Assembly: GCA_965198065.1 (NCBI GenBank)
Contig: CBDAON010000004.1
Location: 1,632,001-1,696,000, forward strand
Direction of reading: 5' to 3'
DNA from: Longimicrobiales bacterium
GTDB taxonomy: Bacteria; Gemmatimonadota; Gemmatimonadetes; Longimicrobiales; Gaopeijiaceae
DNA length: 64,000 nt
The position numbers were made by a program, and so were the translations under genes. The number at the start of each line of letters is the position of its first letter. Position 1 is the stretch's first letter. Below, piece by piece: positions 45,978 to 50,006 of this stretch. A model generated the notes under the pieces. That model had not been told where the DNA came from, did no database searches, and worked only from the letters and a program-made list of their open reading frames with translations.

Positions 45978-47039
45978 TCAGGGGAACGTGCGAAAACCGG
46001 CGGTCGCCGCGGGAATCCCGCAGTCGTCCTCGTAGAGCACGCCCCAGCGGCCCTCCCGCGGCCCGACGATCGCCAGCCAGCGGGCGGACTCGCCGAACAC
46101 CTCGACCACGATGTCGGGCGCTCCGATCCCGTGGGCATCGTGAACGGCGAGGAACCTTGGGAACGCCTTGCCGTCCCCGTCGTAGCGCTGGTGCCATCCG
46201 AAGACCGGCTCGTACTGGGGTTCCGCGGCCTCCGCCAGAATGAAGAGGCTGTACGCGAGGGACCGCCGGGTCGGTCCCACTACGAGGCTGTCACCGTAGA
46301 CGTACGACACGGCCAGCCCCGTGGCCCGACCACGCCGGAGGACCACTTCCTGGAGATCCCGACGAGTGTCGGGGATGGCGGGGGGCCAGAGGACGCCCAT
46401 GTCCGGGATCAGGCGCTGGGCGAGGTTCAGGGCGGCATCCCGGAGCCCCGCGTCCTCGCCGAGGCCGGACACCAGCGCGTCCGCGGGAGGGGGCAAGAAC
46501 GCTCCGCCCCCGGACCCCTCGGCGGCGGGCGCGGCCTCTCCCAGCGCGAGGAACCACCGGTTCGCCATCACCTCGGGACGCACCTCCACCCGTCCCGATG
46601 CGCTGGGGCGCGTGCGGCAGGTCGAGGCATCTGGGTCGAGCCCTCCATCGGAAACGAACGTCCCGGTGCGGACGCCCTGGGCGAAGAGGGTGAACTCCGC
46701 CCCCGGGTCCCACCGTCCCAGCGGGAAGCGCTCGAGGAGCCCGGGCACCTCGATGGAATCGGGGAGGGCGCGGTATCCGCCGTCGGCGAGCTCGGCCACC
46801 GGGACGATGTTTGCCTCCGACCCGTCCAGGCGTTCGACCAGATAGAGGACGGGGCCTAGCTCGAGAGGAACCAGGGCCGCTTCGGCCGCGAGCGGTTGCC
46901 GCTGTACGGTCTGGCTCCCCGCCGGGAGGGACGGAGGGATCAGCTCCACTTGGACCCCGCCGAAAGCCACGTTGTCGCACCCCGCGGCCGCGGTTATCAT
47001 CACGAGCCCGACGAGAGAGCGGAATCCCTTCTCGCGCAT
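45978..47039 (-). CDS. Hypothetical lipoprotein
   Basis: Signal peptide MREKGFRSLVGLVMITAAAG-C; first gene of the transporter operon. Confidence 0.75.
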   Translation of the reverse strand: MREKGFRSLVGLVMITAAAGCDNVAFGGVQVELIPPSLPAGSQTVQRQPLAAEAALVPLELGPVLYLVERLDGSEANIVPVAELADGGYRALPDSIEVPGLLERFPLGRWDPGAEFTLFAQGVRTGTFVSDGGLDPDASTCRTRPSASGRVEVRPEVMANRWFLALGEAAPAAEGSGGGAFLPPPADALVSGLGEDAGLRDAALNLAQRLIPDMGVLWPPAIPDTRRDLQEVVLRRGRATGLAVSYVYGDSLVVGPTRRSLAYSLFILAEAAEPQYEPVFGWHQRYDGDGKAFPRFLAVHDAHGIGAPDIVVEVFGESARWLAIVGPREGRWGVLYEDDCGIPAATAGFRTFP

Positions 47040-47216: not shown

Positions 47217-47705
47217 ATGAGCGAAGACAAGGACCGATTCCGCAGCGTGATGTCCCACTTCGCGACCGGCGTGACGATCGTGACGGGGGTGGAGCCGGAG
47301 GGCGGACCGGTCGGGCTCACGGCCAACGCGGTGGCGTCCGTCTCCCTCGAGCCCCCCCTTCTTCTAGTGTGTATGGAGCGACGCTCGTCTTCTCTCGACG
47401 TAGTGCTTCGCACCGGCCGGTTCGGACTCTCTATCCTTCGTCGAGGGGACGAGGAGCTCGCGCGGCGCTTCTCGGAAGACCGCCCCGCCGAGCGCTTCCG
47501 GGGCCTCACGCTCACGACGGCGGCGTCCGGCATGCCCGTGCTCGCCGAGTGTCTCGCGTGGGTGGACTGCAAGATGTGGCGGGGGTTCGAGGCCGGGGAC
47601 CATCGCATCGTCGTGGGGGAGGTGCTGGAGTGCCACGTCTCCAGCGGGGATCCGCTCGTTTTCTTTAAGGGAGAGTACGGCACGGTCGCGCTCTCGCGGG
47701 AGTGA
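47217..47705 (+). CDS. Flavin reductase family protein (HpaC/RutF-like)
   Basis: FRSVMSHFATGVTIVT, SVSLEPP, AGDHRIVVGEV, PLVFFKG. Confidence 0.92.
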   Translation: MSEDKDRFRSVMSHFATGVTIVTGVEPEGGPVGLTANAVASVSLEPPLLLVCMERRSSSLDVVLRTGRFGLSILRRGDEELARRFSEDRPAERFRGLTLTTAASGMPVLAECLAWVDCKMWRGFEAGDHRIVVGEVLECHVSSGDPLVFFKGEYGTVALSRE

Positions 47706-47711
47706 GCCGAT

Positions 47712-50006
47712 TTGCGGCTCGTACACCTCACCGATCTGCACCTCGGGTTCAGGGGGTTCCCCGGCGTCGAGCGGGAGTCGTCGAACGTCCGCGAGTCGGA
47801 CCTCGCACGGGCGTTTCGCCTGGCGATCCGTGAGATCGTTCGCCTCGGGCCCGAGCTGATCCTCATCACCGGAGACGTCTTCGACTATCCGGATCCGCCG
47901 AGCTCAGCGGTCCTGACGCTCTTCCGCGGCCTACGTCTGCTTCGCTCGAAGCTGCCGCAGGCGCCGGTGCTGGTGATTGCGGGAGCGCGGGACACGCCTC
48001 GCAATCCGGGGATTCCCGGCCCGGTCTCCGTGCTCGATACGCTCCCGGGAATCGAGGCGGCAGCCGGGGCTCCCCGAGCCGTGCGCTTCGCCGACACGGG
48101 CCTCCACGCGCTCCTCGTGCCTCACCGGGCCGCCGTAAGGCCTCCCTTTCCCGAGCTCGGGCCCGATCCCAACGCGCGGTGGAACGTGCTCCTCGTGCGA
48201 GGGGATCCGGAGTCGGGCGGGCGCGGGATGGAGGTGGACCCCGCGGCCTGGGACTACGTGGCCGTGGGGGGCCCGCATCGGAGCCGCGCCTGGAGACCGA
48301 ACGTTCGGACCCCTGGCTCGCTCGAGCGTCCGGGTCCAGACCCCTGGTCCCGCGCCACGGAGGAGCGGGGCTTCCTCTCGTTCGACTTCGCGACGGGGGA
48401 GGCCGAGCTCCATCCGGTCGCGGGTCGCCCCGTGGTGGATCTCGCACCGATCCGCATCACGCCCGAGGACCGCGAGGCGGGCACCCGGCGCTTCCGCGAG
48501 CTGCTGGAGGGCGTTCCGGGTGGGGTAGACGGGAAGCTCGTGCGGGCGCGCTTCGAGGGGGACGTCCTCACGCCGGACGAGGGCGTGTCTCCCGGCCTTC
48601 TCGGCGCGGTGCGGCGACGCGCAACCCACCTCGAGATCCGTCTGTCCGGCGGCCGCGCCGATCCGGCGGGGCGACCCGAGGGGCCCGAGGAGCTGCCCAC
48701 GGCAATCGAGCTGCTCGATCGCGGCGGAGAGGTGCGGGCGACCCACCCCCTCGGGCGAGGGATCGTCCTCGTCACCGCGGCGACGGACGAGCTGAGGGCG
48801 CGCGTGTCGGCGGATCTGCGAGAAAGCGGTGCCACTCCCAGCGGCGAGGCGCCGCATCCACGGTGGCGGATCCGCCTGGCCGCGCCGCCGCCGGCGGGCC
48901 GCGGCCTGTCGTGGATGGGACGGGACGACTGGGGGGACTTCATAGCGGACTGGCTGGACGAGGCAAGGCGGGCCGGGGTGGTAGGCGCTGCGACCCAGGC
49001 CGCTGAACGGGTGGCCGATGGTCCCGTGGCCGGCGACAGCATCGAGACCCGGGAGGTCGCCCTCCAGAGTCTTAGGGCAGATGCCGTGGAGGCCTCGGGC
49101 GACCTCGAGGCCAAGGCGCTCGAGTGGGCCCGGGAGCGCCAGGACGCGGAGTCCCACCTGCACGCCTACCGCTCGCGCGCGCTCGAGCTGAGGAAGCGGC
49201 TCCGGACCCTGGAGGAGCAAGGTGAGGCGTCGGCGTGTCCCACGTGCGGTCGCACCCTAGGGGCGGACCTGCCGCAGCTCCTCCGGGCGCTCCGGGAGGA
49301 GTGGGACTCCGTGGTGCAAGACGGACAGTGGTGGGCGCGTCGTCGCGAGCAACTCGAGGAGAAGCCGGAGGAGCTGCGGCGGATGGAGGAGACCGCGCTC
49401 CGCCTGCACGCCGGTGTGGAGGAGGAGGCGGAAGCCCTGGAAGGCCTCCGGGAACGGGCGCGGCACCGACCCCCAGGCGACGGAGCCTCCCAGCGGCGGG
49501 ACTTGCTCGGGGACCGGTCTGCCGTGGGTCGGCTGGACCGATGGGGCCCTGCTAGGGACCTGCTCCGGAGGACCGGGAGCCTCGTCGGCCTGATCACCGA
49601 GGGAAGGACACTCGGCGTGAGAGTTGGACCCAAGGAAGAGCTCCGAGTCGTCGGGCCGACCGGGGAAGAGAGGGAGCCGGAGGGTGGAGAGAGCGCCTCG
49701 ATCCTGGGGGCGCTCCATTTGGCGCACTGGATCGCGGAACGGGAGCGACTCGGCCCGGGTCGGGGCCTCCTGCTCTGGGAGCTCCACGCGGCGGGTGCCG
49801 CGGAGCTGGCCACTCACGCCGTAGAGATTCTCGGGGCCCTGGAGACGGAAGACGATCTCGTGGTCGCGGTTGTTCCTCCAGCTGTCCTGGAGCGCGTTCC
49901 CGAGGGTTACAGCGTGGCGCTCGAGCTCACGGAGGAGGAAGCCGGCCGCTCGGGCCTCAGGCGCTACGAGTCCGGAACCCCGGCCCTCACGATTCGGCCC
50001 GCGTGA
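47712..50006 (+). CDS. Degenerate SbcD(Mre11)-SbcC(Rad50) fusion protein with zinc hook
   Basis: N-terminal TDLHLG and GDVFD phosphoesterase motifs; central coiled coil with CPTC; degenerate ABC signature EGGE and Walker B LLLWE. Confidence 0.75.
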   Translation: MRLVHLTDLHLGFRGFPGVERESSNVRESDLARAFRLAIREIVRLGPELILITGDVFDYPDPPSSAVLTLFRGLRLLRSKLPQAPVLVIAGARDTPRNPGIPGPVSVLDTLPGIEAAAGAPRAVRFADTGLHALLVPHRAAVRPPFPELGPDPNARWNVLLVRGDPESGGRGMEVDPAAWDYVAVGGPHRSRAWRPNVRTPGSLERPGPDPWSRATEERGFLSFDFATGEAELHPVAGRPVVDLAPIRITPEDREAGTRRFRELLEGVPGGVDGKLVRARFEGDVLTPDEGVSPGLLGAVRRRATHLEIRLSGGRADPAGRPEGPEELPTAIELLDRGGEVRATHPLGRGIVLVTAATDELRARVSADLRESGATPSGEAPHPRWRIRLAAPPPAGRGLSWMGRDDWGDFIADWLDEARRAGVVGAATQAAERVADGPVAGDSIETREVALQSLRADAVEASGDLEAKALEWARERQDAESHLHAYRSRALELRKRLRTLEEQGEASACPTCGRTLGADLPQLLRALREEWDSVVQDGQWWARRREQLEEKPEELRRMEETALRLHAGVEEEAEALEGLRERARHRPPGDGASQRRDLLGDRSAVGRLDRWGPARDLLRRTGSLVGLITEGRTLGVRVGPKEELRVVGPTGEEREPEGGESASILGALHLAHWIAERERLGPGRGLLLWELHAAGAAELATHAVEILGALETEDDLVVAVVPPAVLERVPEGYSVALELTEEEAGRSGLRRYESGTPALTIRPA

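Follow-up and report, generated by a model that had tools for sequence, protein, structure and literature searches.

A conserved, degenerate SbcD-SbcC fusion of Longimicrobiales that keeps its zinc hook and is likely a non-enzymatic scaffold

Introduction

We found that a single reading frame in a 64,000-nucleotide stretch of a Longimicrobiales bacterium (contig CBDAON010000004.1, positions 1,632,001 to 1,696,000; here termed the window) encodes a degenerate, single-chain SbcD-SbcC (Mre11-Rad50) protein of 764 amino acids (positions 47712 to 50006, + strand). Most genomes of the family that carries this gene keep sbcD-sbcC with the ATP motifs and three of the seven metal ligands gone, and the product is likely a zinc-linked scaffold without enzyme activity, not a DNA cutter. 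The gene is kept under purifying selection and is no pseudogene.

Mre11-Rad50 is among the most conserved repair machines. SbcC and SbcD are normally encoded by separate genes, and SbcC needs ATP and a much longer coil. Whether the hook and distal coil have a role beyond linking the heads is a long-standing question, for which laboratory mutants are confounded with ATPase defects. The locus described here provides a graded natural series, all under selection.

Results and Discussion

The 764-codon frame runs without an internal stop from a TTG start at 47712 to a TGA ending at 50006, beginning 6 nt after the stop of a flavin reductase gene, as the original prediction had read it. The possibility of a misassembly, raised there as well, was examined. 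Contigs from three studies (one possibly the source DNA itself) covered the open reading frame (ORF) in one piece with 0 indels, and thus the fusion is not a misassembly; a fourth sequencing run covered the ORF piecewise. No RNA run was listed among the sequencing runs containing this region. A search for homologs in the full-length range returned 257. The AlphaFold2 model, built from 116 of them (120 listed minus four partial sequences), had a mean predicted local distance difference test (pLDDT) score of 91. The motif placements were checked against an intact ortholog of a sister family, and they held. The motifs that had been read from the sequence (DLHLG, GDVFD, GARD, Arg in motif IV, GGPH, CPTC, EGGE, and LLLWE) were all correct, and the assignment of the two halves to SbcD and SbcC agreed with profile and fold matches.

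The named relatives of this gene lie almost entirely within one phylum. Titles were shown for 80 of 305 loci, and nearly all were Gemmatimonadota, with many Longimicrobiales and two UBA6960; the others named two other phyla and, in one case, only “bacterium.” We refer to the Longimicrobiales family of the 764-residue gene as f1, which may correspond to UBA6960, and to other families of the phylum with intact sbcDC as f2 to f5. A survey of 301 genomes of the phylum gave matches in 124/125 genomes of f4, 70/70 of f5, 4/6 of f2, 2/4 of f3, and 35/48 of f1 (the f4 and f5 tallies include the unpublished genomes G055, G155, and G180). All 19 high-scoring loci fetched from f2 to f5 had intact, separate sbcD and sbcC, with GNHD, Walker A, signature, Walker B, and CPTC present in every one. 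In f1, each copy examined was degenerate. The same fusion with the same substitutions, when sought in relatives, was present: the degenerate gene, fused or split, occurred in 172 of 201 f1 genomes and in 60 of 66 genera, with no match in the other 29 genomes. By hand count, about 90 of the 150 listed f1 matches were full length without a stop.

Judged by its position, the 764-residue gene is the native sbcDC ortholog of its lineage and not a spare copy, because its chromosomal slot is the one that holds intact sbcDC in the sister families. Upstream of sbcD in two sister-family loci of f2 and f3 (L041 and L043), we found the same lipoprotein-like gene and flavin reductase gene as in the window, and anthranilate synthase lies 3′ of sbcC in L040 and L043, also as in the window. 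A tree of 58 sequences had a branch with 100/100 support that set the 40 degenerate sequences apart from the 18 intact ones. This tree needs four to five changes between split and fused forms, at least two of them forced. In f3, sbcD and sbcC share one frame separated by a stop, and in several split pairs of f1, one in-frame stop is the sole difference from the fusions. Given these changes, and given split pairs that are just as dead, fusion is, on this evidence, recurrent and secondary. A single locus holds a series that runs from intact genes, through dead split or fused genes, to a hook hairpin alone.

The SbcC half retains the fold of an ATP-binding cassette (ABC) head without its motifs. 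A remnant N-lobe (residues 326 to 420; 48687 to 48971, + strand) gave a Rad50 head fold match, and the C-lobe (residues 603 to 761; 49518 to 49994, + strand) matched the profile of P. furiosus Rad50 (3qkr_B, E value of 2.7e-8). Compared with the Rad50 head 3qku_A, the model over residues 327 to 753 gave a Z score of 12.4, with a root mean square deviation (rmsd) of 4.9 over 239 aligned residues. The split ABC head fold around a coiled coil is present. Within it, the signature reads EGGE (49680 to 49691), Walker B reads GLLLWE (49764 to 49781) with Asp changed to Trp, and the H-loop His is Pro; these align in profile comparison with a probability of 99.8 and an E value of 9e-30. The dead Walker A position, GIVLVTAATDELRA (48759 to 48800, + strand), is placed more weakly, with an E value of 0.003 under one of two alignment settings and no match under the other. 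Intermediates such as GLTAVIGGGGRARR mark the path of Walker A decay from GLTGIIGPNGAGKS. No Walker A of the form GxxxxGK[ST] was found in the 116 fused homologs (0/116), and an SGG[EQ] signature and an hhhDE Walker B were each found in 2/116, compared with all three motifs in the 19 intact loci. The 764-residue protein gave no match to the AAA Pfam family. The predicted loss of ATPase motifs was supported.

The N-terminal half carries both the calcineurin-like nuclease domain and the capping domain of SbcCD. The Mre11/SbcD phosphoesterase-fold domain (residues 1 to 235; 47712 to 48416, + strand) scored above the cutoff for Pfam Metallophos, and the capping domain (residues 236 to 312; 48417 to 48647, + strand) was placed by alignment, column counts, and fold match. 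Model residues 1 to 321 aligned with Mre11 4tug_A with a Z score of 26.8 (rmsd of 4.2, 289 aligned). Motif I, DLHLG (47733 to 47747), and motif II, GDVFD (47871 to 47885), are followed by GARD at motif III (47982 to 47993), Arg163 at motif IV (48198 to 48200), and GGPH at motif V (48267 to 48278). Four of the seven di-metal ligands are present, namely, D8, H10, D55, and H189 of metal 1. The metal 2 positions N92, H163, and H187 read A, R, and G; the catalytic His of motif III reads R93, and the motif II His reads D58. In LpxH, the four kept residues are the metal 1 ligands, the three lost ones are the metal 2 ligands, and the equivalent Arg binds phosphate (PMC5016852). We transferred this assignment by shared motifs and infer that it extends to Mre11. 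The Rad50-binding helices that follow the cap in intact SbcD appear to be deleted, as judged from the alignment and the whole-chain model.

The column counts covered 130 degenerate sequences (116 fused and 14 split). Among these, the metal 1 ligands were nearly universal (D8 in 130, H10 in 130, D55 in 129, and H189 in 129), while the metal 2 ligands were kept in 0 (N92), 57 (H163), and 2 (H187). The motif III His position was Arg in 124 and His in 1, and His is kept in all 19 intact sequences. This shared pattern implies that the nuclease site was remodeled once and not randomly eroded. The original prediction had stated that every catalytic site had decayed. That part stands for the ATPase motifs but not for the nuclease, whose loss is selective at the level of sequence: metal 1 is kept, metal 2 is largely lost, and the catalytic His is replaced by Arg.

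A site of this kind might also belong to an altered phosphoesterase, using one metal or two with the help of His163, free of ATP control, and with the substrate phosphate held by Arg93 in the manner of LpxH. The retention of the metal 1 ligands, of Arg93, and of the motif IV His in 57/130 fits this idea, and LpxH is an active family member with the same His-to-Arg change (PMC5016852). However, LpxH has all seven ligands (PMC5016852), and here Asn92 and His187 are missing from nearly every sequence. In E. coli SbcD, His84Gln alone yields a nuclease-deficient protein (PMC6265447), and several genomes of f1, described below, have dropped the nuclease site altogether. We consider an altered phosphoesterase improbable. 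As for LpxH itself, it shares the calcineurin-like fold and the Arg at the catalytic His position, but it acts on a lipid A precursor and is described with no cap, coil, or hook (PMC5016852). In fold comparison, the Mre11 half gave a Z score of 12.8 to LpxH versus 25.6 to Mre11.

The core of the degenerate protein is its hook coil. In the AlphaFold2 model and the homolog alignment, an ascending coil helix (residues 443 to 506; 49038 to 49229, + strand) and a descending one (residues 517 to 584; 49260 to 49463, + strand) flank the CPTC zinc hook (residues 509 to 512; 49236 to 49247, + strand), which places CxxC at the predicted coil apex. CxxC was present in 116/116 fused homologs, in line with the earlier reading of a hook retained on a shortened coil. 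The hook matched PF04423 and the Rad50 hook structures 1l8d and 6zff weakly. The long coiled-coil arms typical of SbcCD are shortened, with 155 residues from Walker A to hook versus 359 to 375 in intact orthologs and 147 from hook to signature versus 298. On the ascending helix, E460, W472, Q477, L483, and R487 are invariant, and R476 and Y486 are 97 to 99% conserved; Q536, D537, G538, W540, W541, R544, and Q547 are invariant on the descending helix. Identity to sister-family orthologs fell from 63% for intact to 21% for degenerate copies in the C-lobe and from 46% to 34% in the nuclease plus cap, whereas the hook coil was at 33% and 34%. By this measure, the hook-proximal coil alone is without accelerated divergence in degenerate copies.

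Some genomes have gone further. Genomes G330, G338, and G370 (genera g157 and g165; 91 to 100% complete) encode only the hook hairpin in the same chromosomal slot, and no nuclease or ABC remnant was found within 18 kb. The products are stand-alone coiled-coil hairpins of 185 to 200 residues with CPTC (L241:1459-2052 in G330, L239:1099-2016 in G338, and L240:1465-2400 in G370). A protein search gave 17 matches, of which 10 were hairpin-only sequences of 185 to 201 residues, the G330 protein included; several of these come from short contigs. Proteins P0122 to P0132 resemble the hairpins of the three genomes. A hairpin-only pair had a nonsynonymous distance (dN) of 0.20 and a synonymous distance (dS) of 1.7, the latter near saturation. 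Support for the hairpin-only genes in the tree was 57/54, which bears on one versus several origins. In genome G346, the fusion (L242:1285-3699) has lost nuclease motifs I to III with the hook coil intact. A fold search with a hairpin-only model gave no match at an E value of ≤0.001, only generic coiled coils. In the ESM Atlas, residues 440 to 590 fell with nameless clusters and one Rad50_zn_hook cluster at 0.92, which serves as a lead only. Complex prediction for two copies of residues 326 to 764 with zinc scored 0.01 and decides neither way.

We next consider whether these genes are simply decaying. Nei-Gojobori estimates of dN/dS were made with our own script. Of 49 loci gathered, 48 gave an ORF, and we used 10 disjoint congeneric pairs from five genera with unsaturated synonymous distance. 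The pooled ratio was 0.19 overall and, by region, 0.12 for the nuclease, 0.09 for the cap, 0.29 for the N-lobe (the highest), 0.16 for the hook coil, and 0.17 for the C-lobe. Six intact gene pairs had similar values of about 0.09 to 0.33. Ratios of 0.09 to 0.29 are not those of a pseudogene. A relic without current function would explain the loss of all ATPase motifs and the 29 genomes without a match. It would also fit the source species, where strains differ by 10 synonymous and 10 nonsynonymous changes (ratio of nonsynonymous to synonymous polymorphism [pN/pS], 0.39; P of 0.03 versus neutrality), and the absence of any match in the only congener searched, G339 (92% complete). Against this stand open frames over 60 of 66 genera, the low dN/dS, 45 invariant columns among 116 proteins that are 36 to 51% identical to the query, and the same substitutions family-wide. 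At the level of the family, dN/dS refutes the relic reading; for the gene as a whole, we regard it as very improbable. The earlier view of a conserved pseudo-enzyme was thus upheld by the 257 homologs and the pooled dN/dS.

If neither active nor decaying, the protein could instead serve an active enzyme as an accessory, regulator, or decoy, as had been suggested for a canonical SbcCD. The partner could also be a hookless SbcE-SbcF-like pair that is given a hook. In Bacillus subtilis, SbcE-SbcF (YhaN-YhaO) joins an ATPase like those of structural maintenance of chromosomes (SMC) proteins to an SbcD-like nuclease in break repair, and SbcE is described without CxxC (PMC2811018). SbcE-like ATPases are largely confined to the family with dead SbcCD (80/121 f1 genomes versus 0/144 genomes of f2 to f5), they adjoin a nuclease with intact motifs in all eight loci examined, and all three hairpin-only genomes carry one. 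These pairs form a separate locus with intact motifs; the 764-residue protein, by contrast, has CPTC and no AAA_27-type ATPase.

The source genome, G000 (87.6% complete, main contig of 2.87 Mb), argues against a decoy, since neither intact SbcCD nor SbcEF was found in it. No other SbcD match was detected there, and queries with intact native or imported SbcC and with SbcE returned nothing beyond the fusion; none of its 13 AAA_23 matches matched these queries at an E value of <1e-8. Across the family, a strong full-length SbcD match is missing from 153 of the 172 carriers, an SbcE match is missing from at least 16 of the carriers listed, and G339 has SbcE without the degenerate gene. Because the gene is itself the native sbcDC, the idea of a decoy for a canonical SbcCD was not supported, and we find an accessory role in general quite doubtful.

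Genomes that lack the degenerate gene often have an imported intact SbcCD. A strong full-length SbcD match of another type was found in 40 of 201 f1 genomes, beside intact SbcC in all four loci examined. It occurred in 21 of the 29 genomes without the degenerate gene and in 19 of the 172 with it. In genera g3 and g13, where dead and imported forms coexist, the degenerate sequences form a long branch on which CPTC has given way to other CxxC motifs. The imported sbcDC is of at least two kinds (L202 of G062, L203 of G122, L205 of G318, and L204 of G130).

Taken together, we propose that the 764-residue protein could be an ATP-independent, zinc-hook-dimerized scaffold in DNA-end handling, derived from the lineage's own sbcD-sbcC. 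The part of this that concerns a functional non-ATPase centered on the hook is very probably right; the proposal as a whole has about an even chance. In our model, one zinc shared by two CxxC motifs would zip arms of about 65 residues into a short rod. The invariant Trp/Gln/Asp/Arg patch 20 to 40 residues below the hook would form the working surface, for a partner or for the sister arm, in a noncatalytic job inherited from intact SbcC. The one-metal Mre11 head, with Arg93 in place of the catalytic His, may hold on to a phosphate, likely that of a DNA end, but leave it uncut. As a rigid connector, the dead ABC head would join the parts, and fusion may make up for the Rad50-binding helices that appear to be missing. 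The AddAB-like pair would do the cutting in this genome, joined in most relatives by the SbcE-SbcF-like pair. In G000, the former is seen as adjacent PD-(D/E)XK frames of 1017 and 1069 residues (C4:1109579-1115825; L211 and L212).

Orthology, motif losses, selection, and the series from intact gene to hairpin are established. The weak step is the DNA-end role, because DNA-contact residues are lost and the hairpin-only forms are headless. It is drawn from the observation that gene loss tracks SbcCD import and that the hook drifts where both coexist. A number of points weigh against it. The motif II His and the cap have DNA-contact roles in Mre11 (PMC7260605). This His has become Asp in 115/130 degenerate sequences, the Arg that follows it is found in 0/130, and five basic cap residues conserved in intact orthologs are gone. 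Net charge over the nuclease and cap domains is the same in intact and dead forms and is thus no guide to DNA binding. The hook coil is acidic (mean net charge of −6.5), the hairpin-only forms have no evident DNA-binding domain as well as no head, and the conserved patch may only zip the rod. The import association is a lead and not a test, since 13 of the 21 gene-lacking importers are of genus g2 and related genera are not independent; eight f1 genomes lack both the degenerate gene and imported SbcD. SbcEF is absent from its usual slot in G000 (C4, about 1705400 to 1706000), and the contrast in SbcE between f1 and f2 to f5 is one evolutionary event. That arrival may have released the native enzymes. 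Constraint may also be looser in the source genus, given the pN/pS and the congener without the gene; one within-species nonsynonymous change alters conserved H132, and this genus is not represented among the dN/dS pairs. As first suggested, the protein may still tether DNA ends, although several DNA-contact residues are lost.

Much of the same evidence suits a hook scaffold outside DNA repair, in which the rod binds a protein partner in another process, or serves as an adaptor or sensor that depends on zinc, with the heads left over as structural remnants. The loss of DNA-contact residues, the acidic coil, and the sufficiency of hairpin-only genes in two genera all point this way, and Rad50 hook fragments fold on zinc binding (PMC9569753). 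Gene loss and hook drift that track import of intact SbcCD do not, and neither does the lowest dN/dS of the fused genes lying in the nuclease and cap, which is more than leftovers need. We rate this alternative as unlikely. Returning to the DNA-end scaffold, we would tentatively extend it. The hook-proximal coil of SbcC/Rad50 may have its own function, independent of ATP and nuclease, as a docking surface for a repair or replication partner that the intact SbcC of the phylum uses too, although we lean against this broader claim. An SbcC-primase interaction was not found in PMC1533848 and is not used.

We compared the protein with known systems. It resembles archaeal-like SbcCD/Mre11-Rad50 in the Mre11 nuclease and cap fold, the Rad50 head fold, CxxC, gene order, and slot. 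It differs in having no Walker A, signature, Walker B, or H-loop, four of seven ligands, short arms, and a single chain. By sequence, it is a descendant of SbcCD that does not qualify as an active one. Mimivirus R555-type fusions likewise place the nuclease N-terminal to the SbcC part on one chain (Yoshida et al. 2011, PMC3175470). However, R555 retains Walker A, Walker B, the D-loop, and nearly all nuclease residues, and fusions of this type are described as scattered, frequently mobile, and of an origin other than the host pair, which most cellular hosts retain (PMC3175470). The 764-residue gene is instead a vertical chromosomal ortholog in a conserved slot, with a dead ATPase. Two fusions without one P-loop segment are a partial precedent (PMC3175470). 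Lamassu LmuB is also an SbcC descendant with shortened coils and often a hook, repurposed by staged reduction, but it keeps and needs Walker A, has LmuA and LmuC partners, and in some cases loses the hook (PMC12663957). The 764-residue protein has instead lost the ATPase and retained the hook, and its gene lies among housekeeping genes. Walker A (Gx4GK[ST]) and adjacent lmuA or lmuC are absent at the locus, and PADLOC gave only a weak coil match (E value of 2e-4). A defense system was rejected, as no effector genes adjoin the locus.

Our literature search, mostly of open-access main texts, turned up no account of a dead SbcCD, of a Rad50 hook hairpin encoded on its own, or of this locus in Gemmatimonadota. 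If the broader claim above is true, nature has dissected Mre11-Rad50 with both enzymes off and, in some genera, whittled it to a zinc-hook hairpin. A natural minimal protein of 190 residues makes the noncatalytic function directly testable. The locus also illustrates cleanly how a pseudo-enzyme can arise with no prior duplication of its gene. Database names currently mis-annotate the degenerate genes as active SbcD or SbcCD subunits.

Neighboring genes

The fused gene is surrounded by flavin reductase, hydantoinase/oxoprolinase, and anthranilate synthase genes. The flavin reductase gene (47217 to 47705, + strand) also lies 5′ of intact sbcDC in two sister-family loci. Often, in relatives, another gene lies between it and sbcD or it is absent altogether; it is an old neighbor of the slot, and we found no evidence of a functional link. 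In many relatives, the intervening gene encodes a protein of about 430 residues with no Pfam family (L073:4669-5967), which was not found in G000. A terminator-like hairpin with a T run (47643 to 47660, + strand) falls within the final stretch of the flavin reductase gene, at a distance of 50 nt from the ORF (two overlapping calls, 0.6 expected).

HerA and NurA were also considered. Among the intact loci fetched, 13 have a HerA-like gene (weak HAS-barrel match) 5′ of their archaeal-type sbcDC, and those inspected were all from f4 or f5 (e.g., L046:6530-8509, L048:1-2061, and L055:18-2126). No close HerA ortholog was found in 121 f1 genomes, nine of which have a distant copy beside imported sbcD; one imported sbcDC locus in f1 adjoins such a distant HerA-like gene. 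Nor was a close HerA ortholog found in four of five sister-family genomes with intact SbcCD. No NurA was found in G000. We rejected a HerA-NurA scaffold role because neither a close HerA ortholog in f1 nor NurA in G000 was found. The SbcE-SbcF-like pairs (L194 to L198, L200, L201, and L268) are often tens of kilobases from the dead locus.

On the 3′ side, the last 20 nt of the fused gene (49987 to 50006) are shared with the 3′ end of the convergent hydantoinase/oxoprolinase gene, and TMEM260-like and ornithine cyclodeaminase-like genes occupy this side in many relatives. Upstream, a gene (45978 to 47039, − strand) is divergent from this locus in most f1 loci and in two sister-family loci; its 353-residue product carries a lipobox-like CDNV and matches no Pfam family. 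A sigma-70-like site, TTGTCG-17-TATCAT (46972 to 47000, + strand), lies inside the start of this gene. The same hexamers occur 5′ of the hairpin-only genes in G338 and G370, where coding constraint on the opposite strand could explain them.

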